A stretch of 60,471 bases of DNA. Origin: a virus. The notes under the pieces were generated by a model, which saw only the letters and a list, made by a program, of their open reading frames with translations, did not search any database and was not told the origin of the DNA. The translations under genes and the position numbers were made by a program. Shown here piece by piece: positions 34-58,277 of this stretch. Where the stretch lies: the IMG/VR virus record IMGVR_UViG_3300025651_000001; one strand, written 5' to 3'. How positions within the stretch are numbered: the first letter of the stretch is position 1; the number at the start of each line of letters is the position of its first letter.

Positions 34-62
34 TTGACTTATCTCCGGTCCTAGGTTATCCT
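34..62 (+). promoter_or_regulatory. Early sigma70-type promoter PE1 (TTGACT, 17 nt, TATCCT)
   Basis: -35 at 34-39 and -10 at 57-62 with a 17-nt spacer. An A6...T5 flanked palindrome (AAAAAAGTTG...CAACTTTTT) lies at 3-30, in the UP-element position. The same architecture recurs at 2744, 56946 and 59002. Confidence 0.7.
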
Positions 63-845: not shown

Positions 846-1037
846 ATGCTCAACGGAAGGGGCGGCCTGCGCCTGCAACTTCACCCCGGCTTCCGGGCCG
901 GAGATAGTGCCCTGGCCCAAGCAGCCAGATCAGTGACAACAACCAAACAACGGGGAGGATGGTGGTGGGGATGGTTGGTTGTCCAGTCAGCGCTCGTCTT
1001 CCTCGCCGGTTGGCTGGTTGGCTGCTGGCTCTGGTAG
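846..1037 (+). CDS. Possible small protein with a Trp-rich hydrophobic C-terminus (63 aa)
   Basis: GGGAGGA RBS before the ATG. Codon usage is mixed, and the 3' end overlaps the convergent terS-like gene. Confidence 0.35.
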   Translation: MLNGRGGLRLQLHPGFRAGDSALAQAARSVTTTKQRGGWWWGWLVVQSALVFLAGWLVGCWLW

Positions 1038-1640
1038 CTGATTGACTGTGTCGGGAGGAATGGTTGGTTGTTGTGACAGCTGGGCGTCAGCCCCGTGCTG
1101 CGCCATCCATTCCTCCATCGACATCGACGCCGGTACAACGAGGACACCACCTCGGACTGTGGCATCCACACTGACGTTGTCCCTGAACTTCTCAGGGATG
1201 TGGGCCCTCAGCATCAGCTCCATCAGCCGGTCACTCCGGCGCCGGATGGATCCGACGATACGTCCCTGGTAGAACACCGGCTCATCCCAACCCTCCACGG
1301 CACGCTCAAAGGCGGCCGAGTGGAGCCGGTGACGGAACCCTTCCATAGCCTCCACGCACGCCGCGTCAAAGTCGGGGAACATCTCCCGATGCTCCTTCAC
1401 CGTCCTCCAGGAAGTGCCCGCCGCAAGCTCAGCGCCACGTGCATAACCCATCTCCTCCAGCGCTGAGCAGTAAATCGCCTTCTGGTGAGCCGTGAGGAAG
1501 TTGGACGCCCCACGCGCCTTCATCTCCTCGTCCTGCGCCTGGAAGCGCTCCGGCGCGAAGTGCGGCTTGATCACCGGCCCCTCGGCCGACGATGCCAGCT
1601 CAGCGTTCTGCTCACGTGCCTTGAACTGTCCCAGTCCCAT
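987..1640 (-). CDS. terS: Terminase small subunit-like HTH protein (217 aa from ATG 1640; the ORF extends to a TTG at 1664)
   Basis: The N-terminal segment LTAHQKAIYCSALEEMGYARGAELAAGTSWRTV looks like an HTH. The segment ERAVEGWDEPVFYQGRIVGSIRRRSDRLMELMLRAHIPEKFRD matches the pattern I associate with proteobacterial phage TerS proteins. Recognised by eye only. Confidence 0.5.
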   Translation of the reverse strand: MGLGQFKAREQNAELASSAEGPVIKPHFAPERFQAQDEEMKARGASNFLTAHQKAIYCSALEEMGYARGAELAAGTSWRTVKEHREMFPDFDAACVEAMEGFRHRLHSAAFERAVEGWDEPVFYQGRIVGSIRRRSDRLMELMLRAHIPEKFRDNVSVDATVRGGVLVVPASMSMEEWMAQHGADAQLSQQPTIPPDTVNQLPEPAANQPTGEEDER

Positions 1641-1717
1641 GCCGCACCCTAATCGCGGAGGCAAAACATATCGCGTGCGATATTATCGCCTTCCCCTCCA
1701 ACAGGCAAGGATCCAGC

Positions 1718-1815
1718 CACACCAGGCGCCAGTCACCCGGTCACACCAGGCGCCAGTCACCCGGTCACACCAGGCGCCAGTCACCCGGTCACACCAGGCC
1801 ATCCGGTCACCCGGC
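1718..1815. repeat. Tandem array of 3 perfect plus 1 degenerate copies of the 24-bp unit CACACCAGGCGCCAGTCACCCGGT (iteron-like)
   Basis: Units at 1718-1741, 1742-1765 and 1766-1789, with a partial unit at 1790-1814. The array lies between AT-rich island A and the terS-like start. Confidence 0.9.
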
Positions 1816-1816
1816 C

Positions 1817-2093
1817 CCTAAGCCCAATCACACCGGGTCACGACACCATCTTAGCTATCTTAGGATAGCCACACATCCACCACTAACCCAAGACGTCCAA
1901 AAAGTCATAAAAATCAGCCTCTTATATATTATTATATATATATCTTATTATAAAAAGAAATATATAGACGGGGCTCCGTCCTCTATCCCTCTTCCCCTCG
2001 CCCGCTACGTCTAGCGATTATCGCAAATTTCCCAAGAATATACCCCCTTTACGCATAAGCCCTTGATCCGACGTGACTTTTCCACATCTTAGG
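1817..2093. repeat. AT-rich non-coding island A (AT core about 1898-1967) with TCTTAGG/CCTAAG motifs; paralog of island B
   Basis: Sharp AT-rich stretch (cttatatattattatatatatatcttattataaaaagaaatatatag) in a GC-rich genome. TCTTAG(G/C) occurs at 1849, 1858 and 2087, and the palindrome GCTATCTTAGGATAGC at 1854-1869. About 200 bp aligns by eye with 33130-33270. Confidence 0.8.
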
Positions 2094-2201: not shown

Positions 2202-2714
2202 ATGTCGAATGAGATTATCCACAACTTCCCAGCCCACCGCTATCCCGACTGGGGTGCCCTGCGCGTGGGCGACACCGTCATCCTTCTAGACGGTCCGCAG
2301 CACATCGGCCACGTCCACCAGTCCATCATGCAGTGGGCCCGTCGCCACAATCCACTCGCACGGTTCCTCGTGCGCCCCGGGCCCCAGCCGGCACGCTTGG
2401 TGAGCACAGGGGCCTCCGACGGCCGCCGGCGCCTCGCCTGCGACTGGATCATCGAGCGGCGCCGCGACGCCACGCCCGCGCTTCACAAGCGGCTCAATCC
2501 ATACGGTCCCAGCCGCGCCGCGCTGCGTCGCCAGGGCCAGCGCCAGCCGCCGACATCCTGGGCCGCCCTGCGCGTGGGCGAAAGCATCGACGTAGACCTG
2601 CCGCCGGCCTTCATCGCTGAGCGCATCGAGTGGATGCGTCGGGACCGGCCGCGCTGCGACTGGCAGGTGGAGCCACTGCCCAACGGCGGCACGCGCGTGA
2701 CCCGGACGGCGTGA
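2202..2714 (+). CDS. Hypothetical protein with an internal duplication (170 aa)
   Basis: AGGGAGA RBS. Two related halves are visible (WGALRVGDTV...MQWARRHNP and WAALRVGESI...IEWMRRDRP). Confidence 0.65.
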   Translation: MSNEIIHNFPAHRYPDWGALRVGDTVILLDGPQHIGHVHQSIMQWARRHNPLARFLVRPGPQPARLVSTGASDGRRRLACDWIIERRRDATPALHKRLNPYGPSRAALRRQGQRQPPTSWAALRVGESIDVDLPPAFIAERIEWMRRDRPRCDWQVEPLPNGGTRVTRTA

Positions 2715-2743: not shown

Positions 2744-2772
2744 TTGACTTATCTCCGGTACTCCGCTAATAT
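2744..2772 (+). promoter_or_regulatory. Early promoter PE2 (TTGACT, 17 nt, TAATAT)
   Basis: The -35 and first part of the spacer (TTGACTTATCTCCGGT) match PE1. An AAAAAATTTTT tract lies upstream. Confidence 0.7.
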
Positions 2773-10136: not shown

Positions 10137-12491
10137 TCAGAAGGGCGTATCGTCGTGGGCCTCGGGCACGTCCCACTCGCTGGTTCCCTCGTAGTTATTG
10201 TCCCAGAAGTCCCGACAGACCTCCAGGCTCGGGAGCTCATAGAAGTATTGTCGAGTGCTCGTCTGGTGCTCGCTTCCGTCGCCCATGATCTGTGTCACGC
10301 TCGTCCACCTCTGGACTGACTTGGGATAGGGGGCGGGCATCATGCGGGCGAGGAACTTGCCCAAGGCGACCCGGCTGAGAGGCTTGTACAGCCGCATCTT
10401 CTGGGCGTATTCCAGATAGTCCTCGTGCAACGCCTCCTTCAGCACCTCCCGTGGCCAGCCACCGCCCCGGACGGCGTTCAGGAGGTTACCGGTGGACAGC
10501 TTCTCGTGCCACCAGTCCTCCTCGGGGCTGAGGCTCAGCAGCTTCTGCTCACTCAGCGCGGCCGTGCGCGGGAAGGCGCGCACCTCGAAGTTGGACAGAT
10601 CGCGGCGCAGGAGCAGGTGGAGCAGAGCCTCGTAACCGCCGTTCTCCATCTGGTCGCGGATCGCGCGGAAGTAGGCGTTGTTCTGCTTTGCGCCGTCGCC
10701 CACGTCCAGGACGAAGAAACGGCGCTCGTCACCGCCGGCCGGGACGACCCACTGGCTGTTCGACGCGAGGATGATGTGGAGGAAGTTGGGCGCCGTCTCA
10801 GCGTCCACGCCCTTGCCCTCGACGATGAGGGTGTCCTCGGTGACCAGCGTCTTCAGGATGCTCTCGTGCTGCTTGTCGCCGGCATAGAACGCCTCGTCAC
10901 CGAACAGGATCACGCAGTCACGCAGGTGAGCGTTGAAGGCGCCGACGAGGTGCTTTGAGTTGCTCACCTGCAGGAAGTGGCGGCCCCACAGGTGGCCGAA
11001 GGTCCGAACGAACATCGACTTGCCGGTGCCCATCCGGCCGCGCAGCACCACGGCGACCTCGCCCGGCCGATCCGGGAACTGGACCGCGCGCGCCATCCAG
11101 TTCAGCAGGTACTCATAGTGCTCCTCGTTGCCTGAGCAGATATTGTCATGGATGTGCTTCAGGTAGAGCGAGCAATCGCCCGGCCGCGCGTCGCAGGCGA
11201 AGCCGCGCCACAGGTTGTAGGCATCCGGCGCCTCGCGGCGCGGGGCGAACACAATTGTGCGGTACTGTCGCCGCGCGGGCTGGGACAGCCACCACTTCCC
11301 AAGCGGCATCTGGATCGGCTTGCCGTCCTTGTCCTTTCCCACCTCCACCTGGATGTGCATGTAGCGGTTGCGGAAGTCCTCGAATGACTGCCGCGTGATT
11401 CGCGGCCGGTTGAGCATGGCGTCCTCAACCTCGCTGATGACCCGACACTTGCCGCCGATGTCCTCGATGACGGCGTGCTTGTCGTTCAGCTTCGCGAGCC
11501 AGGGGTTGATCGCGTCCTCACGCGCCCGGCGGATCGTGTGAGCCGCGTACTCCTCGGGCCTGGGCTTGTCGAGCACGGACGCTGAGATGCCGAAGTCTGG
11601 ATCAAGCAGCACCATCGCGATTGTGTCGTCATCGCAGCCGGCGCGGACCAGCGAGCATACCACCGCCCAAAGGGCCTCAGAGCGCGAGGGATATTTTGTG
11701 GGGTCGTCCGGGTCGTCGCCCTGGACGATGAGCATCTTGGTGCGCTGCGACACGGTATCGGGAAGGTCGTCCACCGACTTGAGGCGACCCAGGTTGCCGC
11801 TGATCTTGACGGGGCTCACACCGGAGGCCATGCTGCCGGGCATCTGGACGCGAGGCGCCGGGGTGAAGCGGCTCAGGTCATACACCCGGTCAGGGTGGTG
11901 CTCGACGACACGGGCGAGCGCGGCGCTGCGGCCCTTCCTGCGCTTGCGCTCGTCGGGCACGTTAACCGTCCCGGGGAGCCGCATGATGCGGTCGATGTTG
12001 TGGCACTTGTCGGCCTGGAGGGACACCGCGATCTGCTGGTTGTACGCCTCCAGCTCAATCCAGCGCGCCTCGTTGCCTCGGACGGTCTGGGCCTCGGCCA
12101 GCGTCCAGAAGCCCTGGAAGCCGCCGCCACTGTCCACGATCCAGGTGGGCGGCGGATCGTAACTGCGCAGCAGGCGCAGCGCCCGCTCGCGCTCCAGATC
12201 CAGGTCCTCGCCGACCCGAGGGTCCACGTCAACGTGGAGACACACCATCTCGGCAATGTCGGTCTTCTTGGCCTTGCTGGACAAGGGCTTGAGGACCTTG
12301 TTGACCGTGAAGTAGATGTTCTCAACGCCATTGCGCGCGTCGATCCACGCCCGCGCCCGATCCTCGCAGGACGGATCGAAGGTTGCGGTCACCGTGCCGC
12401 CCTGATCCGGCTTGATCGCGGTGAGCACCCACGGGCCCTGCGGGGCCCACGCGCGCAGGAACTCGATGGCCTTGTCAGTCTCTCCCCTCAC
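10137..12491 (-). CDS. Bifunctional primase-polymerase / D5-like SF3 helicase (784 aa)
   Basis: N-terminal prim-pol-like region (LHVDVDP). Walker A GRMGTGKS and Walker B-like VILFGDE in the C-terminal half. Size and layout are typical of D5/P4-type replicative primase-helicases. Confidence 0.8.
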   Translation of the reverse strand: MRGETDKAIEFLRAWAPQGPWVLTAIKPDQGGTVTATFDPSCEDRARAWIDARNGVENIYFTVNKVLKPLSSKAKKTDIAEMVCLHVDVDPRVGEDLDLERERALRLLRSYDPPPTWIVDSGGGFQGFWTLAEAQTVRGNEARWIELEAYNQQIAVSLQADKCHNIDRIMRLPGTVNVPDERKRRKGRSAALARVVEHHPDRVYDLSRFTPAPRVQMPGSMASGVSPVKISGNLGRLKSVDDLPDTVSQRTKMLIVQGDDPDDPTKYPSRSEALWAVVCSLVRAGCDDDTIAMVLLDPDFGISASVLDKPRPEEYAAHTIRRAREDAINPWLAKLNDKHAVIEDIGGKCRVISEVEDAMLNRPRITRQSFEDFRNRYMHIQVEVGKDKDGKPIQMPLGKWWLSQPARRQYRTIVFAPRREAPDAYNLWRGFACDARPGDCSLYLKHIHDNICSGNEEHYEYLLNWMARAVQFPDRPGEVAVVLRGRMGTGKSMFVRTFGHLWGRHFLQVSNSKHLVGAFNAHLRDCVILFGDEAFYAGDKQHESILKTLVTEDTLIVEGKGVDAETAPNFLHIILASNSQWVVPAGGDERRFFVLDVGDGAKQNNAYFRAIRDQMENGGYEALLHLLLRRDLSNFEVRAFPRTAALSEQKLLSLSPEEDWWHEKLSTGNLLNAVRGGGWPREVLKEALHEDYLEYAQKMRLYKPLSRVALGKFLARMMPAPYPKSVQRWTSVTQIMGDGSEHQTSTRQYFYELPSLEVCRDFWDNNYEGTSEWDVPEAHDDTPF

Positions 12492-16906: not shown

Positions 16907-17489
16907 CGTTTTCCTCCGGATTGAAGTGGTCCTTGATCCACTTGTCGGCCTCGTCCGCATCCTCGGGCATTCGAGCCCAGACCCATCGGACGCACTCGAC
17001 AAACTCTTGCATATCGTGGGGCAACGGCTTCTTGAGCCAGCCTGCCTCGATACGCAGCCTGATCTCCTCCGTCTGCTGGTTGCCCATCCGGTACTGCTCC
17101 AGACACCACAGCCAGAGCTCCAGACGGTCCAGGGCCTTGAGAACGTCCCTGTGCTCTGGGCTGAGCTGGTGCGCATCGGGGATGCCGAAGCGGGCGCAGA
17201 TGTCCTCGTCCATCGCCCTCAGAGCGGACGCCAACTCCGGATGGTCGTCGATGACCTGCCCCGGGATGTCGCCCGTGAAGCGCTCGGGTGCGTCGTGGAA
17301 CAGAGCCGCCGGGCCAAGAGTAGCCCAGAGCTGCGGCCGGAAGGCCCAGAGCAGCACGAGCACGTTGTACACGTGAATCGCGTTGTTGTACTCCCCATGG
17401 AACGGCGCCACGTGGACACGACGGACGGCGCCGCTCTCTCGGCCGATCTTGGTGATCTTCAGAACTCTCTCAAGCGTGCGCGTTTCCAC
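16869..17489 (-). CDS. HD-domain phosphohydrolase (dNMP/dNTP hydrolase-like, 206 aa, GTG start)
   Basis: Motifs H..N and LFHDAPERFTGDIP. GAAGGGGAGAGG RBS before the GTG at 17489. Confidence 0.7.
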   Translation of the reverse strand: METRTLERVLKITKIGRESGAVRRVHVAPFHGEYNNAIHVYNVLVLLWAFRPQLWATLGPAALFHDAPERFTGDIPGQVIDDHPELASALRAMDEDICARFGIPDAHQLSPEHRDVLKALDRLELWLWCLEQYRMGNQQTEEIRLRIEAGWLKKPLPHDMQEFVECVRWVWARMPEDADEADKWIKDHFNPEENDDFAPEFDFDAH

Positions 17490-18546
17490 CGTCCTCTCCC
17501 CTTCCGTAGTCAACTCCGTCGTCCTGGGCCCTGACCCAGGCCCGGTGCCGTCCCTCGATCCACCTTGAGCAGGCAATCCTCCAGTCGCTGGCCTGACACT
17601 GCTGAACGATCTCCAGAGCGCCGATGTATCGGTCCTCCCCGCGCGTGTCGCGGTAGTGCCGGTGGGCCATCACAATCGGGCACGCCACCGTCGTGAAGAA
17701 GCGGTGATGTAGTTTCGGGTGCGTCGGCTCCTGCCAGAAGATGGTCAGGTCTGCGTCCCACTTGATCTGGGCGTGGGGCATCTCGTCCATGATGGGGAAC
17801 GGCTGTGCCAGCCCAAGCTTGTACATGCAGTGACGCTCCACCTCCTGGGGCCGGTCGGGGATGCTCATCCCCGCCATGACCTCGGTGTAGGCGTGATAGT
17901 TGTTCGAGAACTGGTACATGAAGCCCACGTCGCACCCGAGGGAGCGGGCGACGTACTCCAGCAGCACCGAGAAGTGGACCGCGTTCGCACCGTGGGCGCC
18001 CCAGATCGCGTCATTGGAGCGACAGCAGATAGTCATGTTGACCCGGCCTCGGGTCACCCCGAGGTACACGTGCGTGTTGCAAGGCACGTCCCGGCCGCCC
18101 GCGTCGGCCGCGTCGATGTCGGCCCTCGGATCCCACATCCCAATGACCACCCGGCGGTCATTGGGATCCTTGCGCAGCCTCTGGATTGCCCAGGCCAGCT
18201 GGTCACGGTCGAAGTGCCGGCGCCAGCGGTGGCCGTAGGCGCCCGGCTGTGTCTTGCCGCCGTCGTCGCTGAATTGCGCCATCCGGCTGACGTATGGAGT
18301 GAGCGCCGCCAGATCGTTCCGGCCGGCGAGCATCCACAGGCTCTCAACGAAGTGGAAGAATGGGTTTTCGTTGCGTCCCGGAAGGGATAGCACCCGCTCG
18401 TCGGGCCGATGGGTCACGGTGGTCACCGGCGCCGGCGCGACGATCACCGGACCGTTGCGGCTCGACTGCTCGACGCCGTGCTGAAGCAGAGTAGACAAAC
18501 CTCCGGCGAGTGCGAAGTTGACGTTGCGGACCTCGTTAACGAACAT
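17470..18546 (-). CDS. Thymidylate synthase-fold enzyme, likely a dUMP hydroxymethylase (358 aa)
   Basis: ThyA-like motifs RNENPFFHFVESLWMLAGRND, GAYGHRWR, catalytic Cys in VPCNTHVY, and RSNDAIWG. Its position next to a 5-hmdU kinase-like gene favours a hydroxymethylase. Confidence 0.75.
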   Translation of the reverse strand: MFVNEVRNVNFALAGGLSTLLQHGVEQSSRNGPVIVAPAPVTTVTHRPDERVLSLPGRNENPFFHFVESLWMLAGRNDLAALTPYVSRMAQFSDDGGKTQPGAYGHRWRRHFDRDQLAWAIQRLRKDPNDRRVVIGMWDPRADIDAADAGGRDVPCNTHVYLGVTRGRVNMTICCRSNDAIWGAHGANAVHFSVLLEYVARSLGCDVGFMYQFSNNYHAYTEVMAGMSIPDRPQEVERHCMYKLGLAQPFPIMDEMPHAQIKWDADLTIFWQEPTHPKLHHRFFTTVACPIVMAHRHYRDTRGEDRYIGALEIVQQCQASDWRIACSRWIEGRHRAWVRAQDDGVDYGRGEDGGNAHA

Positions 18547-18549
18547 GTC

Positions 18550-18657
18550 TCACCTGCGATACTTGTAGTTGCGCCAAAGGCCGACGGCGGCGAGAGCGGC
18601 CCCGATGGCCACCCAGGCCCAAGCGTCATCCGGCGGGGTTGTCAGCCACGTCCACAT
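18550..18657 (-). CDS. Candidate 35-aa membrane micro-protein
   Basis: Product is MWTWLTTPPDDAWAWVAIGAALAAVGLWRNYKYRR. It exactly fills the gap between two enzymes. The RBS is weak. Confidence 0.35.
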   Translation of the reverse strand: MWTWLTTPPDDAWAWVAIGAALAAVGLWRNYKYRR

Positions 18658-18672
18658 CGCCCTGCAGCCTCA

Positions 18673-19692
18673 TCAGTAACCCCTCCCCGGGACATACTTG
18701 GCTCGCGGACGACCCTCGCCGTTGCGTACTCTCAGATATTTATCTACCTCGCACAGCGAGTGCTCCACGTCCCTCATCTCCAGCTTCGGTACGTGGAGGC
18801 CCAGGACATCAGAGGGCTCACCGCCGCTCGTCAGTTCCTCGTCAGTCGGGCTGTGGTACGTGGCCCGCTGAGAGTTGAGACGTTCCAGGATGTCCTGCAT
18901 GAGCGCGACAGCGTGCGATGGAGACATCCTCTGAGACGGGTCCACCCCGAGGAGCCGGTTGAGGCCGCGCAGAGCACCAGGCCCGGCGTTGGCCCAGGTC
19001 ATGATGTCCGGCGCCTGTCCGAGATAGCGCGTGTGGCGCATGTCCGTCACCACCTCATACGCCATGAAGGGCCCCCAGCCGACGTAGAAGTCATTCTGGA
19101 AGCGCTCCCACACAGACTGGAGTGTCTGGGGCGTGTCTAGGAAGCGGCGCCAGTCGTCGCGATCCTCCCAGAGCCGGCCGATGACCACCTCGGCGATGTA
19201 CCGCTGCTTGCTCCAGCTGTACCAATGCTTTCTCGGGTCACTCTCGGCGCGGATCATGTAGGCGCCGGTGTAGACCTTGTGTCCCAGGTTCTGGTAGGCG
19301 TCGAGCGCCTCCCCCAACTTCTCAGGCGCGAACGCCTCGTGGGACGGCCACGCGCCCGGGGTCTGCATCAGGTGCTGCAGTGTCGGCGGCCAGTTGATCG
19401 TCCGGGCAATCGCCAGCATCAGCCAGAGGTCAAGATGGTCGGCGAAGGGCCGCCGGATGTTCTCATCAATCCAGATCGTGACGCGGTCCAGCTCCCGGAA
19501 CACGTTGCAGAAGCGGTACTCACGCAGGATCGGGTCGTGGGTCAGGTAGTCGGCTCGATACTCGTGCAGCACTCCCTGGGTGCGACGCGGATTGGCCCAC
19601 TCCGGCACCGGGAGTGCGGCGAGATGCTGCTTGCGCAGGTAGATGGCATGGCGCTCGTTGATCCAGTAGGCCAGGGGAGCAATCCTAAGCAT
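18673..19692 (-). CDS. Alpha-glutamyl/putrescinyl thymine pyrophosphorylase (aGPT-Pplase)-like protein, paralog A (339 aa)
   Basis: Motif YRFCNVFRELDRVTIW and a C-terminal GWGPFMAYEVVTD segment, as I recall for aGPT-Pplase clade 1. One-nt start/stop overlap with the kinase gene. Confidence 0.65.
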   Translation of the reverse strand: MLRIAPLAYWINERHAIYLRKQHLAALPVPEWANPRRTQGVLHEYRADYLTHDPILREYRFCNVFRELDRVTIWIDENIRRPFADHLDLWLMLAIARTINWPPTLQHLMQTPGAWPSHEAFAPEKLGEALDAYQNLGHKVYTGAYMIRAESDPRKHWYSWSKQRYIAEVVIGRLWEDRDDWRRFLDTPQTLQSVWERFQNDFYVGWGPFMAYEVVTDMRHTRYLGQAPDIMTWANAGPGALRGLNRLLGVDPSQRMSPSHAVALMQDILERLNSQRATYHSPTDEELTSGGEPSDVLGLHVPKLEMRDVEHSLCEVDKYLRVRNGEGRPRAKYVPGRGY

Positions 19693-20315
19693 CAGTCGTT
19701 CTCCGCGATACGCGCCAACACTGCCGCCGCGTCCACCGCCACACTCTCACCGAGGACATCCAGGACGAGCTCGCCGCTGTCGAGCGCCTTCCGGCGCGTC
19801 GCCATGACGGCGCGGTGCTTATCCTCGATGGTCTTCGTTCGGGCCTTATCGCCGGTGCGCGCCCGCACACGCTCGATGCAGGTCTCCACCGGGGTGTGTA
19901 GGTAGGTCCAGAGGAAGCGGCGCCCTGTGCTCTCGCGCAGCCTCTGCGCAGTCTCCCTCCACGTCGCGTACACAGTGGAGATGAGTGAGCCCTCGAAGAC
20001 CACCGCTCGGACCTGGACGCCATTGATGCTGCGCGTCTGAGCCGCCGCCTGTACGGCGTCGATGCACAGCTGTGTGGTGGGCACTCTGTCCATGCCGCCG
20101 CAGTTGACGTCGCCGTAGCGCCCAACCAGCAGCACGCCCGTGACCGGGGAGAATGTCCCGTGGATGTATTTCCTGACCGTTCCCTTCTTGGTCTCGGCGT
20201 CGTAGCTGGTGATGATGTGGTTGTTCCAGTCGGTGTCGTGGGTCGTCGGTGTGACGAGCCTCATGGCCAGCGTGGTCTTGCCGGACCCGTTCGTGCCACG
20301 AATGTTGATGATCAT
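19692..20315 (-). CDS. P-loop kinase, 5-hydroxymethyl-dU DNA kinase-like (207 aa)
   Basis: N-terminal Walker A IRGTNGSGKTTLA. GGGAGGGAGA RBS. Flanked by the two Pplase-like genes. Confidence 0.65.
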   Translation of the reverse strand: MIINIRGTNGSGKTTLAMRLVTPTTHDTDWNNHIITSYDAETKKGTVRKYIHGTFSPVTGVLLVGRYGDVNCGGMDRVPTTQLCIDAVQAAAQTRSINGVQVRAVVFEGSLISTVYATWRETAQRLRESTGRRFLWTYLHTPVETCIERVRARTGDKARTKTIEDKHRAVMATRRKALDSGELVLDVLGESVAVDAAAVLARIAEND

Positions 20316-20386
20316 AATTCTCCCTCCCAGGACCGGAGACTAGCGTATGTGCGAGTTGGTACGGAAGTGCAGAAGGTTGTCAACCA

Positions 20387-21241
20387 CTAAGCCGCCGCGA
20401 GCATGGGAACGGGCGGCAGGTGGAGCCTCAGAACGTTGACGAGCGGCGCCGTGTTCCCCCAGACCTGCAGTCCCACGTCGATCTCGCGGATGTCCTTTCC
20501 GACATAGTAGTGGCCACCGCGCATCGACTTCCACTTACACAGGATTGTCTCAACCTCCTGTGGTCCGCACGGCCGGTCGAACGTCGGGGGCGCCTTGAAC
20601 TGGCGAAAGTAGCCCAGAAGATCGTTCCAGTGGGCATCACCCCGCCGGCCGTCCTCCGACGAGAGGATGTCCAGAGCCGCCGCTGGCTCGCGGTACATGA
20701 TGCCAAGGTCGGGTGGGAAAACGATCCTGCTGCCCAGAACGCGCTCCAGCATGTCGGCGATCTTGAAGCCGATCCACGGGCCGAACTGCGGCAGACGCTT
20801 GATCTTGGCCAACACGTCGTCAAGCGCGGCACTTCCCTCCGTGAGGTGCAAAACCAGGTCCTCGGGCCGGGGCCACATGTCCGCCAGCCAGCGCACCGCG
20901 TCGACAGCCTTCTGGCCCCGGAAGTGCCGGCGCTCGTGCGCCCTCGGCCATCGTCCGCCGGTCGGAGCGGGCAGCTCGTTGGCGGCAGCAATCTCCATCA
21001 TCCGCCAGAAGGTCCGCCCGCTGGCCGCCGCGATGTAGGCCGATGCTCCGCAATGGTAAAAGCACCAATAGGCGACGAGGAAGCGACACAGCTCATCCTG
21101 AGTGATGTACCTGGGCGGGGGCGCAGCCGCCGCGTCCACCGGCTCGCGCGTATAACGGCCCGTGGCGCCCGCTAACATAGAATACACCGGGTCCAGGTCC
21201 TCGGTCCTGATGAGCTGTGTTCCGAACGTCCTGATATCCAT
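20387..21241 (-). CDS. aGPT-Pplase-like protein, paralog B (284 aa)
   Basis: Motifs DLDPVYSML, AYWCFYHCGAS, RWPRAHERRHFRG and FGPWIGFKIADM. GGAAGGGAGA RBS at the ATG at 21241. Confidence 0.6.
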   Translation of the reverse strand: MDIRTFGTQLIRTEDLDPVYSMLAGATGRYTREPVDAAAAPPPRYITQDELCRFLVAYWCFYHCGASAYIAAASGRTFWRMMEIAAANELPAPTGGRWPRAHERRHFRGQKAVDAVRWLADMWPRPEDLVLHLTEGSAALDDVLAKIKRLPQFGPWIGFKIADMLERVLGSRIVFPPDLGIMYREPAAALDILSSEDGRRGDAHWNDLLGYFRQFKAPPTFDRPCGPQEVETILCKWKSMRGGHYYVGKDIREIDVGLQVWGNTAPLVNVLRLHLPPVPMLAAA

Positions 21242-21255
21242 TGGTCTCTCCCTTC

Positions 21256-21417
21256 CTACATTGAGCCCGGCGGGACGTAGAGGCACTGGAGCTGGCTCCC
21301 GAAGTCACACCGATGATCGTGGGACTTCGCTTCCGTCACGGCGCCGATGAGCACCACCAGGATGATTGTTAGACAGGCCGCGATGAACATGTACAGGTCG
21401 CGCTTATGTTGACTCAT
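21256..21417 (-). CDS. 53-aa single-pass membrane micro-protein
   Basis: GGGAG RBS. Product is MSQHKRDLYMFIAACLTIILVVLIGAVTEAKSHDHRCDFGSQLQCLYVPPGSM. Not in the ORF track. Confidence 0.5.
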   Translation of the reverse strand: MSQHKRDLYMFIAACLTIILVVLIGAVTEAKSHDHRCDFGSQLQCLYVPPGSM

Positions 21418-21421
21418 GTCG

Positions 21422-21655
21422 TCACTCCCGTCCGTACTTGAGGAACATCGTCCCGAAGAGCAACCCCACGAGGAAAAGGCTCACCCGGGCAAGAGCCTCG
21501 GCCGCCTCGGGCTGCAGGCCCATCGACGCCAGCGCCCACTGGAGCAGACTGCCCACACCCAGCGCGGCCGTCATGAGCAGCATCAGCACGGTCGCAGCCA
21601 GGATGATCACGATGGTGCGACCGATGACGATGCAGACGATGTCCCAGAGGGTCAT
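21422..21655 (-). CDS. 77-aa membrane protein (2-3 TM segments)
   Basis: ATGA overlap with the radical-SAM stop. Almost entirely hydrophobic. Confidence 0.65.
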   Translation of the reverse strand: MTLWDIVCIVIGRTIVIILAATVLMLLMTAALGVGSLLQWALASMGLQPEAAEALARVSLFLVGLLFGTMFLKYGRE

Positions 21656-23019
21656 CTCACCGCCTCCCGCAGGTCCGGCAGCCGGAGCGCCTTTGCCTGT
21701 CCGAACAGCTCGGAGCCGCAGCGCGGCTTCCCGCCGTTGTTATCGGCGCAGGCGAGACACCCCGTCGGCGGGCACTCCTCAACCTCGCGGAAAGGCTGAT
21801 CTAGCTCCCGGCGGGTGAACATCGGGACCCGGTGGCCATGGCACTGGTCGGCGGTCAGGAAGTCGCCCCCAATGCTCACCCATCGGCCGTCGCGCTTGGC
21901 GTACTCATAGCACGTCGCGTAGGTCATGCCCAGCTCGGTGGCCCAGGATTGGTAGAGACGATGGGCCTCCAGCCGGTACTCCTCTACGATGGTCTTCTGG
22001 GCGCCCCCGCTGTTCTCCTGGAACAGGGCCTCGAACATGGCCGCACGGTTGTCGCCGAAACGCTTCTTCATGCGCTCGACCATCGTTCCGGCCCAGGAAT
22101 GGCCGGCTTCCACGAACTTGACGATCACGTGGTTGTTGCCGACGGCGGCCAGCCGCTCGAACAGCCGCCGGATGTCGTCGTGGGTGGTGATGCCCGCCAC
22201 AACCGGGTTGACCTGAATGGACGTGTAGATACCCTGGCGCCTCAGCTCGGCGATCTCGTCCAGATGCTCCTGCAGGGGGATAGCGCCGGGCGACAGCTTC
22301 TGCCAGTCCTCGTCGTCGCCTGTGTTGAGCGACTTCTGGGCATAGCTGTACTTGTTCTTCTTCAACAGGTCGATGGCCCAGCCGGGATAGTGGAGCCTGC
22401 TCAAGAAGAAGATCGGCAGACCGTTCTCGACGAAGGCCGTGGCTCCGGCCTGCGTGTTGTGATAAATGTCCTCCAGCGGCAGGAATGGATCAGTGAAGCT
22501 GGAGAAGTAGCCGGCGGCGCTCGTGCGCATGCCGGACAGCTGCTTTCGGACGTGGTCGCCGTAGTTGACCGGCACGCTGATGAGGCCGCTGCCCCGGTAG
22601 CCCCGGAAGCCGCTATTGACGTAGCAGAAGGCGCAGCCCACGGTGCAATAGCCGCCGTAGGGCTCAGTCAGGATCGCGTCTGTGAAGCACGGGCGCGGAC
22701 GGGAGCCCTGCTTGTCGTTGTGCTTGGGCTGATACCAGCCCTGCAGGTCCTTGCCCTTCTCCAGCCGGATGTGCGGAAGCGTGGGCTTGCCGTCGAAGCC
22801 CACGTATACCTTCCGTTCAATCATCATGTCCTCTGGCGCGTTCCTCACCATGCCGACGCGGGCGATGCGGAACTTGGCGACGCGGCCGGTGAGCGGGTCG
22901 TACTCCTCCTGCGCCGGGCCGACGAACTCACGCTGCTCGGGGTCGGGCCGCATGAAGTACTGGTAAGCCTTCTGCGCGTCCTCGCCGTCGTCGCGGTTGA
23001 GCCAAGCTGCGTGATCCAT
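21652..23019 (-). CDS. Radical SAM enzyme (455 aa)
   Basis: CxxxCxxC cluster motif CTVGCAFC. AGGAGGA RBS at the ATG at 23019. Confidence 0.8.
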   Translation of the reverse strand: MDHAAWLNRDDGEDAQKAYQYFMRPDPEQREFVGPAQEEYDPLTGRVAKFRIARVGMVRNAPEDMMIERKVYVGFDGKPTLPHIRLEKGKDLQGWYQPKHNDKQGSRPRPCFTDAILTEPYGGYCTVGCAFCYVNSGFRGYRGSGLISVPVNYGDHVRKQLSGMRTSAAGYFSSFTDPFLPLEDIYHNTQAGATAFVENGLPIFFLSRLHYPGWAIDLLKKNKYSYAQKSLNTGDDEDWQKLSPGAIPLQEHLDEIAELRRQGIYTSIQVNPVVAGITTHDDIRRLFERLAAVGNNHVIVKFVEAGHSWAGTMVERMKKRFGDNRAAMFEALFQENSGGAQKTIVEEYRLEAHRLYQSWATELGMTYATCYEYAKRDGRWVSIGGDFLTADQCHGHRVPMFTRRELDQPFREVEECPPTGCLACADNNGGKPRCGSELFGQAKALRLPDLREAVR

Positions 23020-23020
23020 G

Positions 23021-23230
23021 TCAGTTGTCCTCCTGGAAGATAGCCGCACGCACCGCCGCGTCCTTTGCCTCCAGCAGCTTGCGCAGGGCGGTTGAGCGCT
23101 CGGGGTTGCGCGGTAGGGTGTCAACGATGCGGGCCGCCAAACGCGCGAAGGGTCGGCTCACGTCCTGGAGCGGGGACGGCAGGTGATCGAACTCAAAGAA
23201 CTGAAGGATGGGCTCGCGGGAATCAGTCAT
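23021..23230 (-). CDS. Hypothetical protein (69 aa)
   Basis: ATGACTGA coupling with the upstream ORF. A conserved-looking LRKLLEAKDAAVRA segment. Confidence 0.65.
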   Translation of the reverse strand: MTDSREPILQFFEFDHLPSPLQDVSRPFARLAARIVDTLPRNPERSTALRKLLEAKDAAVRAAIFQEDN

Positions 23231-23399
23231 GTCGGGTCCTCTTGATCAGTCTCATGAGCTGCAGTTGAGCCCGACGCACGTCGGCGGCGGACCTGCTTGG
23301 CAGCCGCACGCACAACCCTGTTGGTTGGTGGCGCAGCTCGTGGCCGTCTATGACGTAGGCGGGGACTTGACCCCTCTGGTCTCGAACAAGCTCAGGCAT
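23223..23399 (-). CDS. Hypothetical protein (58 aa)
   Basis: Overlaps both neighbouring genes by 8 nt. No recognisable motif. Confidence 0.45.
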   Translation of the reverse strand: MPELVRDQRGQVPAYVIDGHELRHQPTGLCVRLPSRSAADVRRAQLQLMRLIKRTRHD

Positions 23400-23694
23400 C
23401 AACGGGCTCCTCGTCAGACGTGGCGACGCGGAGGAGCGCCTCCCTCTCCTCGGCCCCCGGCCAGCGGCCAAGCCGCTCGTCAAAGTCGGCCAGGAGGAGA
23501 AGCATCCTCATGACAACCACAAGGTCCTCGTGTTCAAATATTGCGACCTTGTCGCCGGGCTCGTGTCTGTCGTCGCGCTCCCACACCATCCCCTCCCACC
23601 GGCGCGGCGAGCAGAATTCAAAGCGCGTCAGGCGCCAGCTGCGGCCGGTGGCATCGAGGGCGGCAACCAGATCGTTGGGGAAGACGTTGCTCAT
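23392..23694 (-). CDS. Hypothetical protein (100 aa)
   Basis: ATGA overlap with the upstream gene. Confidence 0.6.
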   Translation of the reverse strand: MSNVFPNDLVAALDATGRSWRLTRFEFCSPRRWEGMVWERDDRHEPGDKVAIFEHEDLVVVMRMLLLLADFDERLGRWPGAEEREALLRVATSDEEPVDA

Positions 23695-24395
23695 GACTGC
23701 CTCCCATAGACGGTCACTCCGGTCTCCTGACCGTCATAGTGCAACAGCCAGGGCCGCAGGCACTCGCCATGCGTCAGCGCCTCCAGGCGGTAGTAGGACG
23801 CCGCGTGGTGTCGCGCGACGGCCACCATCTTGTACTTGGTCCGCTGTTGCCACCACTCGTCAAGCTTGTTGATGTAGTCGATGAAGCCGGGCCGCTCCAG
23901 ACCGTAGCTCCGCCAGTTGAGGTGCAGCTTGGAGCAGGCGCTGTCCGTGACCTGGATCCAGCTGGGACGCAGCTCCAGCACCTCGCCGATGAGCTCCAGG
24001 CGCCAGTCGTCCTCCCGTCCCTTCTCCAGGTCGAGGAGGGTGAGCCGGTTGAAGTCGAGGGACACGCCGACCTTCCGCGGCGGCTGTATCGTGGGCGCCA
24101 GCTTCTGGAGCACGCTGAGCGCGTCGTCATTGTCGCAGTACCGGAGCGGGTTTTGCGTCTGCAACTTCGCGTTCCACTCCTGGGCGCAGGCGGTGTCCAG
24201 GTCCGATGAGTAGATGCTGGCCCCAGGCCAGAAGTCCCTCATGATCTGCGCCGTCATGCCGATGCCGCCGAATGACTCAACGATCACGTCGGGCGCCTCC
24301 GCCCCCGCGAGGACGTGTCGCATGCAGGCGGCCTCCCTCGCGCGCTCTTTGGCGGGCCGGCTGTGGTACGGGGTCTTATCGGTCATCCTTGCCAT
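23691..24395 (-). CDS. Rossmann-fold SAM-dependent methyltransferase-like protein (234 aa)
   Basis: Motif I-like VIVESFGGIGM, an acidic post-I residue (SSDLD), and a possible degenerate motif IV (SLDFN). Confidence 0.4.
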   Translation of the reverse strand: MARMTDKTPYHSRPAKERAREAACMRHVLAGAEAPDVIVESFGGIGMTAQIMRDFWPGASIYSSDLDTACAQEWNAKLQTQNPLRYCDNDDALSVLQKLAPTIQPPRKVGVSLDFNRLTLLDLEKGREDDWRLELIGEVLELRPSWIQVTDSACSKLHLNWRSYGLERPGFIDYINKLDEWWQQRTKYKMVAVARHHAASYYRLEALTHGECLRPWLLHYDGQETGVTVYGRQS

Positions 24396-24398
24396 GGC

Positions 24399-25289
24399 TC
24401 ACCCCACGTTCCAGAGGAGGGCGCGGCCCTCGTGCTGGGTGGCGAACTCCGTGCGCTGCTCGCGCTGCCGGAGCCACCACCTGACGGTCTTGAGATCATA
24501 GTACTCATTGCACGGCCAGGGCACATCCGGGCCGGGTCGAGCCCGGTCCTTGTAGGCGTAGCCCTCGTTGACGATGTCTAGCCTGATGCCGAAGTTCTCG
24601 GCCAGCGCGGCCGGACTCAAGCCGACGTGTTGGGTGATGTAGCGCAACACCTCGATCTCGGATCGGCTGTAGCCGAGGTGGATGATCACGTCACCCTTCC
24701 AGGCCAGCATGTCCCGATGCAGGCTGAGCAGCCCGCTCACCACGCCAGCGGCGATGGTGGCGCTCGAAGCGGGCACCAGGATCGCTGTCGATAGCATGAC
24801 AGCCCTGACGGTATCGTTGTCCTGCAGCTCGGCCGCCGTCTCGCTCACGGTCTCGGGCAGCTTAAGCGCGTTCGGCATCATGTAGACATCGGGGCCGAAC
24901 TCCCGCACCAGCTCCTTCTTGGCTTGGTGGTAGAGGATCGCGCTGCGGCCGGCCGGGAGGGGGCGCAGATGCGCCCCTAGAGACATCGAGTGAGTCTGCT
25001 GCGGCCGCAGCTCGTTGCCGTCAGCCTTGTAGCGTGGATAGTAGTTGACGCACGTCTTCCCCAGGACGCGACATGCGTGGGCGACTGCCCAACCGCCCTG
25101 GGAATGGTAGGTGTCCAGCACGCCAATGACACGCTCGGGTCGCGCGACGATGTGGGCGAACACCCCTCGCGTCTTGGAGAACGGCGGCCCCGGCGGCGGG
25201 CAGCTCAGGTCCTCGCGCTTGACGAGGAGCCCGAACTGCTCGCGGTAGTCCTCAACGGGGGTGGTGACGCAGATAGATTGGCGGCTCAT
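24399..25289 (-). CDS. Fold-type II PLP-dependent enzyme (ACC deaminase / Trp-synthase beta-like, 296 aa)
   Basis: N-terminal VKREDLS...FSKTRG (PLP lysine context), then a glycine-rich nucleotide-loop-like region. Confidence 0.6.
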   Translation of the reverse strand: MSRQSICVTTPVEDYREQFGLLVKREDLSCPPPGPPFSKTRGVFAHIVARPERVIGVLDTYHSQGGWAVAHACRVLGKTCVNYYPRYKADGNELRPQQTHSMSLGAHLRPLPAGRSAILYHQAKKELVREFGPDVYMMPNALKLPETVSETAAELQDNDTVRAVMLSTAILVPASSATIAAGVVSGLLSLHRDMLAWKGDVIIHLGYSRSEIEVLRYITQHVGLSPAALAENFGIRLDIVNEGYAYKDRARPGPDVPWPCNEYYDLKTVRWWLRQREQRTEFATQHEGRALLWNVG

Positions 25290-34104: not shown

Positions 34105-34348
34105 TGTTGACCTCCTCCTCGCGCGCCTTCGCGCGAGCCTCAGCCTCAGTCGCGCGCCTCTCCGCCTCCCTCAGAGCAGCCTCGATGCGCTCCCGCACAG
34201 CGTCTGCTGCCTTCTGCGACCGGGCCTGTACCTCGCCCTGGCAGCGCACATACCCCCTGTTCTCGGCCCATTTCTGCGCATATAGCACAGCGGCGGCGAT
34301 GCCGAGGCCGATCCAGACCTGTCGCGGGATGAGGGCGAACCAGCTCAT
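34007..34348 (-). CDS. i-spanin (113 aa)
   Basis: N-terminal TM (WFALIPRQVWIGLGIAAAVLYA), then an Ala/Glu/Arg-rich coiled coil. ATGA overlap with the endolysin stop. Confidence 0.7.
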   Translation of the reverse strand: MSWFALIPRQVWIGLGIAAAVLYAQKWAENRGYVRCQGEVQARSQKAADAVRERIEAALREAERRATEAEARAKAREEEVNNVIRDAATVKVGTCVPPAVVERLQRIQNNVGR

Positions 34349-35499: not shown

Positions 35500-35555
35500 T
35501 GTCCCGCTCCACTGGTAGATGCGGGACGATAGCTGAAGTCAGACCAAGAGACAAA

Positions 35556-36569: not shown

Positions 36570-36574
36570 TGAGT

Positions 36575-37156
36575 TCACCCAGAAATGATGAGGGGGCGCC
36601 GACGCGACGCCCCCTGGCCGCCCGAGGCGACCGAGGCCAGCACCTCGACGGCCACCATGGTGACGCGCACGGGCAGCTTCTCCTGCAGGAGGACTTCCCC
36701 GGCGATCATCGTTGTGAATACGCGCGGTATAACCCCGACCTGATACAGTCGCGTCTCGTCGGCCGACCACGGCCGGACGTTCTCGAAATTGGCTACATCG
36801 TTCCAGACCAGCCCGTCGTCTGAGCTCTGGAGAGTGAAGTTGCCCGGCGGCGAGACTGGCGATAAGGATCCGTAGGGCCTCAGAGCCAATTCTACAATGT
36901 CTACTGGTGCCGCGAACTGGTACATCAGCCAGTGAGGCCCGGCGCTGCTGTCTGACTCCCAACGCGTGTCGACGTTGCCGTCGAATGCGTTTTCCGCCCC
37001 TGTCGAGCCGGTCAGCTGGCTGGACGCACTCGCGGTGCCCCCGGTGGCGACGTTGGGGCCGCCGATGGTGGAGCGCATCTCGCAGATCGCTACGCTGGTG
37101 CGCGAAAAACCAGGGAAGTTCGCGGGGAAAAACAGTCGCCAGTAGAGATGAGCCAT
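36575..37156 (-). CDS. Discoidin (F5/8 type C)-like carbohydrate-binding tail protein (193 aa)
   Basis: Motif AENAFDGNVDTRWESDSSAGPHWLMYQF is typical of discoidin domains. Confidence 0.6.
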   Translation of the reverse strand: MAHLYWRLFFPANFPGFSRTSVAICEMRSTIGGPNVATGGTASASSQLTGSTGAENAFDGNVDTRWESDSSAGPHWLMYQFAAPVDIVELALRPYGSLSPVSPPGNFTLQSSDDGLVWNDVANFENVRPWSADETRLYQVGVIPRVFTTMIAGEVLLQEKLPVRVTMVAVEVLASVASGGQGASRRRPLIISG

Positions 37157-56398: not shown

Positions 56399-56486
56399 GA
56401 GGGAATATCGCCACTCGGACAAATTTTTTCTACAGACAGACACCACACACATGTTGTTTGGTTGGTTGGTACAGAGTGGTTGGTTG

Positions 56487-58263: not shown

Positions 58264-58277
58264 CCGGAGACACGACC

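Follow-up and report, generated by a model that had tools for sequence, protein, structure and literature searches.

What role do two abrupt AT-rich gaps play in an otherwise GC-rich phage genome? The genome is that of the uncultured virus recorded in IMG/VR as IMGVR_UViG_3300025651_000001, and the whole analysed stretch of 60,471 nucleotides is called the window here. The gaps are island A (1817..2093), which precedes the small terminase gene terS, and island B (33098..33353), which precedes an SNF2-family helicase gene; both are AT-rich and carry short repeated boxes. An earlier note on this DNA had proposed that they could be middle-class promoters, bidirectional origins of replication, or both. 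Our analysis indicates that the islands are very probably a conserved, duplicated, orientation-independent protein-binding cassette, in which boxes surround an easily melted core. Tentatively, they may further be transcriptionally active, origin-type protein-DNA assembly sites that form a two-site system like oriL/oriR of phage SPP1. The option "origin or both" thus survives as the leading hypothesis, while the promoter-class part of the proposal was not supported.

The two islands stand out first by composition. GC content is 0.447 at 1801-2100 and 0.473 at 33001-33300, compared with about 0.65 for the rest of the genome, and since the next-lowest 300-bp bin has a GC content of 0.563, the islands are its sole deep GC dips. 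In direct orientation they align over a BLAST high-scoring segment pair of 151 bp with 65.6% identity (E=9e-9). Because low-complexity AT-rich DNA can align spuriously, shuffle controls were run. The local alignment score of 29 compares with 10.3±1.4 in dinucleotide shuffles (z=13, 0/1000) and with 12.5±2.2 when the shuffles keep the flank/core/flank composition (z=7.6, 0/1000), and the reverse-complement orientation of the pair scores 15. The GC dips, BLAST match and z scores bear out the proposal of two paralogous AT-rich islands in direct alignment, and every shared sequence block that had been named was present in both. These blocks are TTATATATTAT (1922-1932 in A, 33168-33178 in B), TGACTTTTT..CGTCTTGGGTT (1907-1885) and its counterpart TGACGTTTTT..CGTCTCGGGTT (33147-33125) on the minus strand, CTAGCGATTATCG (2011-2023) with CTAGCGAATTTATCG (33244-33258), and ATCCTAAGAT..CTAAG.

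The boxes are confined to the same two places. All six copies of TCTTAGG in the whole window lie inside the islands, as do 8 of the 9 CTTAGG hexamers. Six is an ordinary count for the window (expectation 2.1), but by our own estimate, composition allowed for, chance would place only about 0.04 copies in the ~530 bp that the islands make up. Spacing is exactly 10 bp at 33327/33337/33347 on the minus strand, where phased TCTTAGG boxes had been reported, and at 33099/33109 on the plus strand, while island A holds five or more box-like sites. An origin would be expected to combine at least three short, helically phased boxes with an adjacent AT-rich unwinding element; island B has three TCTTAGG copies at 10 bp, and the cores of the islands are the two lowest-GC spots of the genome. 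A middle promoter motif would instead recur upstream of many genes of one temporal class. TCTTAGG and CTTRGGTT are restricted to the two islands, and the likely promoters of terS and of the helicase gene lie outside them, in keeping with the transcription start sites (TSSs) 814 and 33417 of phage YuA, which are downstream of the AT cores there, so the middle-promoter proposal fails. The phage-specific (middle) promoter of YuA has the form CTTTACTTCTTCGG-N8-CACTATACT and occurs in 9 copies; neither this type nor a sigma54 promoter was seen in the islands on reading the sequences. The third-densest CTTAG cluster (340-640) was rejected as a further island. It consists of two copies of an unrelated terminator-like hairpin, GGCGGCGCACTAAGCGCCGCC, at 331-351 and 571-591, each with a stop codon in the loop and at the 3' end of a small early plus-strand gene, which accounts for the spurious cluster.

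Island A is bounded by inverted CCTAAG (1817-1822) and CTTAGG (2088-2093). Inward from the terS side, a plus-strand box pair (1849..1864), TCTTAGC at 1849-1855 and TCTTAGG at 1858-1864, 9 bp apart, is followed by the conserved block TGACTTTTTGGACGTCTTGGGTT (1885..1907, minus strand). This block is shared with island B, contains the box variant GTCTTGGGTT and resembles the YuA element TTGACTTTTT. The AT core (1920..1967) is of (TA)n-like low complexity, reaches a GC content of 0.35 over 150 bp, and is a candidate DNA-unwinding element. At its distal edge, a minus-strand hairpin GGACGGAGCCCCGTCT followed by a T-rich run (1966..1981) is terminator-like. Beyond it lie the near-palindrome CTAGCGATTATCG (2011..2023), comparable to CCCGATAAATCG of YuA, and the distal plus-strand box TCTTAGG(TT) (2087..2093).

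Island B has comparable parts. Its gene-proximal plus-strand boxes (33099..33114), CTTAGG at 33099-33104 and TCTTAGG at 33108-33114, are 10 bp apart and precede the conserved block TGACGTTTTTCCCGTCTCGGGTT (33125..33147, minus strand), which contains the box variant GTCTCGGGTT. The AT core (33166..33214) is again a candidate DNA-unwinding element, the element CTAGCGAATTTATCG (33244..33258) is the paralogue of 2011-2023, and the distal minus-strand boxes GTCTTAGGTT, ATCTTAGGTC and GTCTTAGGAT (33327..33353) keep an exact 10-bp spacing, the array starting at the stop codon of the last open reading frame (ORF) of the lysis cassette.

Each core also contains a sigma70-like site on the minus strand. 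In island A this is TTTATA-17-TAATAT (1926..1954), directed toward terS and ranking about 6 genome-wide in a position weight matrix scan, and in island B it is TATACA-17-TATAAT (33173..33201), directed toward the helicase gene and ranking about 9. The two sites occupy homologous alignment positions, with the -10 region formed by the shared block TTATATATTAT. They invite a purely transcriptional explanation, which we regard as possible though somewhat doubtful, and as nearly as likely as origin-type sites: the island would be a cluster of operators or upstream elements around a core sigma70 promoter that heads a transcription unit, and a regulator of phage or host origin, bound to the boxes on both flanks, would loop or occlude the core and thereby coordinate the replication unit with terS. 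As promoters, however, the core sites are suggestive only, since AT-richness inflates such scores, and weaker sigma70-like sites in the cores point the opposite way. In the window, island A would moreover govern a single gene.

To place the islands in an evolutionary context, we compared the window with its relatives. The helicase protein is 46-51% identical to those of the Pseudomonas phages PaMx11, Ab18, Epa5 and YuA/M6/PAE1 (Mesyanzhinovviridae), and TerL, portal, capsid, PolA and primase are 45-73% identical to their counterparts in that family. The phage is a distant relative of the Mesyanzhinovviridae, represented here by YuA, PaMx11, Ab18, Epa5 and Mallos. Megablast of both island regions against deposited phages gave no match. 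In viral and metagenome collections, a search with the helicase returned fragments that were 98-100% identical and otherwise much more distant sequences, with no set at intermediate distance.

We applied the same self-BLAST to the whole genomes of the five relatives, considering dispersed repeats of at least 80 bp. An island pair was the top dispersed repeat in all five, and the only one in Ab18. The pair links the two spots of lowest GC in the genomes of PaMx11, Ab18 and Mallos, and the GC minimum of YuA falls in its terS-proximal island. The pair is in direct orientation in the window (151 bp by pairwise BLAST, 65.6% identity) and in YuA (218 bp, 63%), and inverted in PaMx11 (386 bp, 75.6%), Ab18 (369 bp, 81.6%), Epa5 (216 bp, 78%) and Mallos (282 bp, 62%). 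The first and last 127 bases of the window assembly are identical, which indicates a circle of 60,344 bp unit length, and the island centres lie 31.27 kb apart on it. This distance, 52% of the circle, agrees with the near-antipodal placement that had been pointed out. It is a by-product of module sizes, as the corresponding values are 55% in YuA, 47% in PaMx11, 55% in Ab18 and 53% in Epa5 (47-55% over five genomes, the window included) but 28% in Mallos.

Position and sequence landmarks identify the pairs of the relatives as homologues of the window islands. In YuA, PaMx11, Ab18 and Epa5, as in the window, terS is preceded by one island, and the second occupies the gap that separates the lysis genes from the SNF2 helicase gene; in YuA the two are the intergenic regions upstream of gp50 (terS) and gp02 (helicase). 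Mallos likewise has an island upstream of terS, but its second one precedes the major capsid gene. Common to all are boxes of the CTTRGGTT type in both orientations, together with a CGA(T/C)AAATCG-like near-palindrome (CGATAAATCG-like), a TGAC(T/G)TTTTT element, and an AT-rich simple-repeat core. Octamers of the form CTT(A/G)GGTT fall inside the islands in 3 of 3 cases in the window, 5 of 5 in PaMx11, 5 of 5 in Ab18 and 6 of 8 in YuA, where one of the two outlying copies lies in the spacer of the mapped sigma70 promoter P001. Mallos has four GCTTAGAT-type boxes at 9-bp spacing that abut a core of 28% GC. Conservation of the blocks in relatives, the check that the earlier note had named, thus returned the same island pair with CTTAG-type boxes in all five phages. 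A more distant IMG/VR relative (helicase 46% identical) has TTCTTACG boxes around an AT-rich palindrome, and a scan of it for this box pair, aimed at a second island, recovered the known island only. The deeper outgroup JWX (Steinhofvirus) has no CTTAG boxes in its AT-rich spots, which suggests that the trait stops at the Mesyanzhinovviridae-like lineage.

Between genera, the nucleotide similarity of the islands is confined to the boxes, and the window pair is the weakest of those compared. The sequence of the core is kept neither between paralogues nor between genera: the two YuA islands have (GAA)6 and (TATC)6 there, PaMx11 has (TC)7, and the window a (TA)n-like stretch. All that persists is an AT-rich simple repeat of some kind, as would be expected of an unwinding element.

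The orientation of the islands bears directly on whether they serve as promoters. Polarity was read from the landmark order core, TGACTTT, forward boxes, gene. In the five genomes traced (window, YuA, PaMx11, Ab18 and Epa5), the polarity of the terS-proximal island does not vary. The second island has the polarity of the terS island in the window and YuA and is flipped in PaMx11, Ab18 and Epa5; the Mallos pair is inverted as well. A promoter-operator region should keep a fixed polarity toward its operon, and the second island does not. In Ab18 and PaMx11, the flipped repeat is followed, before the start codon, by a helicase promoter site, TTGCCY-N17-CACAAT, which is not part of the repeat. Since the island has been flipped while the gene promoters stay outside it, it works in either orientation relative to its neighbours and is not simply a gene promoter.

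Rates of change within the pairs are consistent with a shared function. Comparison of PaMx11 with Ab18 gives identities of 75.6% and 77.4% for the orthologous islands and of 89-91% for the flanking genes, so the islands evolve faster than coding DNA. The two paralogous islands of Ab18 are nevertheless 80.6% identical to each other, above either orthologue comparison with PaMx11. The two copies thus appear to be kept alike by concerted evolution, as would be expected if the same factor or factors read both. In the four Abidjanvirus copies, nested inverted repeats, GCAAACCCGCGC/GCGCGGGTTTGC and CGACTCGAGwTACTTGAG/GAGTAACTAGAGTCG, are symmetric about the AT core with boxes at the ends; at 250-390 bp, such nested symmetric repeats exceed what a promoter needs. 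Among strains ~98% identical to the window, the island B region 33020-33365 (about 335-350 bp) has 4 variable columns, compared with 2.9% variable columns over a 4-kb alignment, which shows only that island B is no more variable than coding DNA among close strains.

Experimental data for this family come from YuA and concern transcription. The GenBank record of YuA lists two sigma70-type promoter-trap fragments, 489-568 and 33014-33160, the only two of this type that the trap recovered. Both fall at the homologous positions of the two islands, which showed promoter activity with the polymerase of the host, with the promoters about 80 bp upstream of the AT cores and the proposed -35 element TTAGGT inside the box. 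ONT-cappable-seq of YuA (Putzeys et al., bioRxiv 10.1101/2023.10.13.562163 / PMC10914365, Supplementary Tables S3-S5) placed TSSs 150-200 bp downstream of the AT cores, at 814(+) just ahead of the helicase gene and at 33417(+) ahead of terS, and these tables contain no TSS call at the promoter-trap sites. Another TSS, 612(-), fires out of the AT core of the helicase island and gives antisense non-coding transcripts that end at 411 (201 nt) or 60 (PMC10914365). Mapped 3' ends on both strands fall at 395-471 (395+, 471+, 411-; PMC10914365), where two inverted boxes, GCGCTTGGG...CCCAAGCGC, form a long hairpin and enclose a second palindrome; box pairs may thus also serve as bidirectional terminators where the island ends. 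Collectively, the TSS and promoter-trap data suggest that the islands are transcriptionally active in both directions, yet are not the start of the main gene transcripts.

The main transcripts appear to be served by promoters of other kinds. In the window, a terS-proximal sigma70-like promoter, TTGCCT-17-TAATAT (1680..1708, minus strand, weight-matrix rank about 15), lies outside island A, and a weak helicase-proximal one, TTGCCT-17/18-(G)TAGGTT (33053..33082, minus strand), recognised by reading and not among the top ten of the scan, lies outside island B. The TTGCCY-type -35 of the terS promoter matches the helicase promoters of Ab18 and PaMx11 as well as P001 and P014 of YuA, and the mapped YuA promoters TTGGCT-17-TATACT (TSS 33417) and TTGCCA-17-TAAAAT (TSS 40) are of the same type. 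Repeat analysis also revealed five near-consensus sigma70 promoters, TTGACT-N17-TATCCT/TAATAT/TATAAT, at 34-62(+), 2744-2772(+), 56946-56974(+), 59002-59030(+) and 56398-56370(-), each associated with a hairpin and then CTTGACTTATCTCC.... The hairpin, GAAAAAAGTTGCCTCCGAGACAACTTTTT, precedes each of them, in a weaker version before the 2744 copy, and members of the set take ranks 1, 3 and 10 genome-wide. These are likely early promoters read by host RNA polymerase (RNAP). Other intergenic gaps of the leftward block have weak sigma70-like sites without a box, such as CGCGCTATACTCG upstream of 25879. It is firmly established that the islands are distinct from both the early promoters and the gene-proximal promoters.

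How, then, does the transcriptional explanation fare as a whole? It has the only direct experimental support in the family, namely the YuA promoter trap and a TSS inside one core. The islands also stand upstream of genes or operons in nearly every genome, and a box-like sequence occurs in promoters elsewhere: three of the five early promoters carry GTCCTAGGTTATCC across the spacer and -10 (the island form is GTCTTAGGTTATCT), in addition to the copy in the P001 spacer. Set against this are the inversion of the second island in PaMx11, Ab18, Epa5 and Mallos, the distance of the YuA helicase and terS TSSs from the cores, and the lack of a regulator conserved across the genomes that share the box. 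The YuA "putative repressor" gp25 (HTH_31) was rejected as box binder because it has no counterpart in the window.

The antisense transcript of YuA raises the further question of whether the islands are paralogous non-coding RNA (ncRNA) genes, each with a promoter in the AT core and a terminator at the inverted boxes. The 201-nt transcript from 612 to 411 does run from the AT core to the inverted-box hairpin, the region conserved between the YuA paralogues (435-651 / 32975-33189) covers it together with its promoter, and such a gene would explain the flipping of the cassette. Relative to shuffles, both window islands also fold better on either strand, with z = -2.7 to -3.7. This excess is symmetric on the two strands, however, as expected from DNA-level inverted boxes. 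Across the four Abidjanvirus copies, the RNAalifold covariation term was -0.06 and -3 kcal/mol on the two strands, most predicted pairs being invariant, and Rfam and tRNA scans found nothing. With no equivalent TSS called in the YuA terS island and only the boxes conserved in sequence between genera, we consider ncRNA genes very unlikely, and a structured ncRNA was rejected on the missing Rfam match, the strand symmetry of folding and the absence of covariation.

The 3' ends of both strands at the YuA box hairpin, at an island edge, could also mean that the islands are junction insulators, that is, bidirectional terminators between modules with no further role, or else a decaying duplicated or mobile segment. 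Both islands do sit at module junctions, and island A has the terminator-like hairpin at 1966-1981. A terminator scan of island B found nothing, though, and the pair persists across hosts and subfamilies with a conserved box, concerted evolution and, in island B, at least the conservation of coding DNA among close strains. There are no terminal inverted repeats of more than 6 bp and no target-site duplications, and each genome has only two copies. Insulators or relics are accordingly highly improbable. A miniature inverted-repeat or other transposon was likewise rejected, as the inverted ends match over 6 bp only in an element that has two copies and positions conserved across genera.

If proteins assemble on the boxes, which ones are shared by the genomes concerned? 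The DNA-handling proteins common to all island-bearing genomes are the primase-helicase (39-56% identity), the SNF2 helicase (29-51%) and, where detected, TerS (32-50%). No small DNA-binding protein or regulator common to all box-bearing genomes was found, though a host factor is possible, and the small early proteins of the window had no homologue in the relatives. The best phage-encoded candidate for the box binder would be the primase-SF3 helicase fusion (10137..12491, minus strand), which joins an AEP-like primase (weak RepB_primase match) to an SF3/D5-type helicase (DUF5906, E=6e-20). Proteins of this class such as P4 alpha and pRN1 ORF904 carry a C-terminal winged-helix origin-binding domain and act at origins of the "iterons plus AT-rich" kind (PMC2777425). 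In the window protein, the C-terminal ~110 residues were predicted by AlphaFold with a pLDDT of 84 to adopt a strand-helix-helix-beta-hairpin-helix topology, confidently in two models.

TerS, the other candidate, would make the islands packaging (pac) sites: TerS would assemble on phased boxes flanking a bendable core, TerL would cut nearby, and the other island would provide a further or auxiliary pac. One island is directly upstream of terS with its polarity kept in the window, YuA, PaMx11, Ab18 and Epa5, and island A stayed with terS although an early cassette now parts terS from terL. In P1 pac, hexamer arrays flank the cleavage region, and SPP1 has pacL and pacR; the islands likewise have phased box arrays on both flanks of a bendable centre beside terminase genes, and their layout of boxes, about 200 bp and then inverted boxes resembles P1 pac. 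The family is reported to be circularly permuted with headful packaging (PMC11946847), for which a pac near terS is expected. The P1 and SPP1 pac sites are single-copy, in contrast to the window, which has two islands, one of them 31 kb from terS; the second copy is remote from the packaging genes, and many relatives have it inverted. TerS of the window had no tblastn match in YuA and aligned only partially with the other relatives, yet the box core is the same, and no published packaging termini were found for the family. We therefore judge a pac function quite unlikely.

Among the readings considered, we favour origin-type assembly sites, at the tentative level given above. A conserved DNA-binding protein, with the primase-SF3 helicase as best phage-encoded candidate, would occupy the phased boxes on both flanks, bend the DNA and destabilise the AT core. 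Host RNAP would also start transcripts in or beside the core, making each island a transcription-assisted origin-type site. Both islands would bind the initiator; one would fire, and the other may arrest forks or promote a switch to concatemer synthesis near the packaging genes. This reading is favoured because phased boxes in both orientations and a sequence-unconstrained AT core define such sites, because the cassette tolerates inversion and its copies evolve in concert, because the only conserved candidate binders are replication and packaging proteins, and because SPP1 provides a documented two-site precedent. It and the transcriptional explanation are not mutually exclusive.

In SPP1, oriL and oriR are two distant, similarly organised regions that each combine direct repeats with an AT-rich unwinding element, both bound by gp38; oriR, intergenic and bracketed by transcription signals, has been put forward as a site that stalls forks and sets off the theta-to-sigma switch (PMC6316719). 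Like the present phage, SPP1 is a pac-type siphophage in which AT-rich islands are the strongest compositional feature of the genome (PMC6316719). The two differ in that SPP1 has a dedicated origin binder, gp38, with a DnaB-type helicase, that oriL lies inside gene 38, and that the boxes are unrelated. Binding and initiation have been demonstrated by experiment for SPP1, whereas for the window islands they are predicted.

Other phages offer partial parallels. P4 needs two separated cis regions, ori and crr, with the same short iterons, and crr is active in either orientation. The distance between them is 4.5 kb as opposed to 31 kb here, and the primase part of the window protein looks AEP/RepB-like rather than DnaG-like. 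T7 has a primary origin formed by promoters 1.1A/B and an AT-rich region, and ori(uvsY) and ori(34) of T4 combine a middle promoter with an unwinding element. The islands resemble these in having a promoter beside an AT-rich unwinding region, several sites per genome, and a machinery of PolA and primase-helicase. They differ in their phased boxes, the most conserved feature here, since T7 and T4 need no iteron arrays, and no phage RNA polymerase is encoded in the window. In lambda, OL and OR are paralogous control regions with repeated operators for one regulator that head two transcription units. Unlike lambda operators, which overlap the promoters and keep a fixed polarity toward their operons, the boxes here lie on either side of the core promoter-like site; the cassette also tolerates flipping, and no regulator was found to be conserved. 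The link to P4 and pRN1 is that the window encodes a primase-SF3 helicase of the alpha/ORF904 initiator class (PMC2777425).

Several observations weigh against origin-type sites. The sole experimental data in this phage family, those for YuA, concern transcription rather than replication, and an origin model does not predict that one copy should invariably lie upstream of terS. The inversion of the second island in Bradleyvirinae may be one evolutionary event. The C-terminal domain of the primase-helicase was not shown to be a winged helix: Foldseek gave no significant match, with best E values of 0.15-0.6 and top TM scores of 0.34-0.40 to Cdc6 chains of ORC-Cdc6 complexes, and a profile search of the C-terminus matched the helicase core only. 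The extremes of cumulative GC skew fall near the islands in the window (1,090 and 35,512), but away from them in YuA (15268/39513), PaMx11 and Ab18, phages in which all genes are on one strand and replication skew would be cleanest. Replication skew is often lacking in phage genomes, and as the indicator is inconsistent across relatives, GC/AT skew is uninformative about an origin.

A more specific version of the origin-type reading, which we put forward as speculative and rather unlikely, would couple DNA synthesis to packaging through two-site control, with the CTTAGG iterons of the two islands bound by the primase-SF3 helicase. Theta replication would start from one of them, at the head of the replication module. 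The other, near terS, would be a programmed fork-arrest or re-initiation site, where replication switches to concatemer synthesis at the point at which terminase starts, and the constant presence of a copy beside terS would thereby be accounted for. Concerted evolution would keep the two copies alike.

The genes around the islands agree with the context described in the earlier note, island A before a lone terS and island B between lysis genes and replication block, as domain and PHROG matches confirmed. Downstream of island A, terS occupies 987..1652 on the minus strand (phrog_4044, E=3.4e-38), and the gene on the far side (2202-2714, plus strand) has no assigned function. Island B lies between the last small ORF of the lysis cassette, whose endolysin is at 34345-35499 (PF11860, E=5.5e-55), and the SNF2 helicase gene (31467..33029, minus strand; PF00176, E=6e-19; phrog_62, E=4.5e-108). 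The latter heads a 27-kb leftward block for replication and nucleotide metabolism that encodes a Dda-like helicase, ribonucleotide reductase, a ThyX-like synthase, PolA, dCMP deaminase, the primase-helicase, MazG and an exonuclease.

The window differs from its relatives in that terS is detached from terL; its direct island pair is as in YuA, in contrast to the inverted pair of Bradleyvirinae. An opposite-strand early cassette of ~5.5 kb with its own promoters (57025-60344 + 1-842) separates terS from terL (54057-55574), which are adjacent in YuA, PaMx11 and Ab18. As a result, terS is a lone leftward gene, convergent with the small plus-strand genes at 113-842. The early promoter copy at 56398(-) is directed at terL and the structural block. 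Some 3.5 tandem copies of a 24-bp unit, CACCAGGCGCCAGTCACCCGGTCA, separate island A from the terS promoter (1713..1799), and the equivalent gap of PaMx11 contains a (CAGCAC)x10 repeat.

Other repeats lie near the early promoters. Between the divergent promoters 56398(-) and 56946(+), the region 56445-56870 consists of G-rich tandem repeats (TGGTTGGTTGG...; GGCCGGGCGAGGGCCGAGGGCCGGCGAG, with 17-18-bp and 101-bp periods), with a GC skew of +0.44 to +0.55 and G-quadruplex potential. Similar GGGCGAAGGGCGAGG repeats precede the terS islands of PaMx11 and Ab18. In the early plus-strand cassette, a 79-nt intergenic repeat occurs three times (57257-57335, 57726-57804 and 58101-58179; 86-100% identical), and each copy has two GC-rich hairpins followed by a ribosome-binding site and start codon. 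These repeats could be attenuator or terminator-leader modules.

Two further gene sets concern the DNA and the host of this phage. A thymidine-hypermodification set of the M6/YuA type spans 17470-25289 and includes a dU-hydroxymethylase-like thymidylate synthase homologue (17470-18546), a kinase-like protein of the "terS/thymidylate kinase" PHROG (19692-20315), a radical-SAM "photolyase" (21652-23124) that is 75% identical to YuA gp12, and a PLP (pyridoxal phosphate) "threonine dehydratase" (24399-25289). The DNA is probably hypermodified at thymine, and the modification would be densest in the AT-rich islands. The distal-tail and lysis segment (33348-41587) is without homologue in the Pseudomonas relatives; it includes a 1238-aa tail protein (37871-41587) with Phage-tail_3 and Rcc01698_C domains, similar to host-specificity proteins of gene transfer agents. 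This unmatched segment suggests that the host group may differ from that of the relatives.

Iteron/AT-rich origins and paralogous operator regions are both well-known kinds of element, and nothing here is categorically new; in the literature, we found no paper that describes these regions as a conserved pair. What the comparison adds is that the piecemeal promoter-fragment annotations of YuA belong to one duplicated, box-bearing cassette that is family-wide and extends to this uncultured relative. It also yields a corrected regulatory map of the window, with five strong sigma70 early promoters, weak TTGCCT-type gene-proximal promoters, and the islands as a separate class. Four concrete targets follow: the CTTAGG boxes, the AT core, the C-terminal domain of the primase-helicase, and TerS. 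Yuavirus and Abidjanvirus phages are under characterisation for Pseudomonas aeruginosa therapy, and the islands give them a concrete candidate for an origin or switch, as well as DNA flagged as needing preservation when such genomes are rebooted or minimised. If the coupling of DNA synthesis to packaging were true, the islands would be the first origin/switch system for the Mesyanzhinovviridae, a Gram-negative parallel to SPP1 oriL/oriR with an SF3-helicase initiator.

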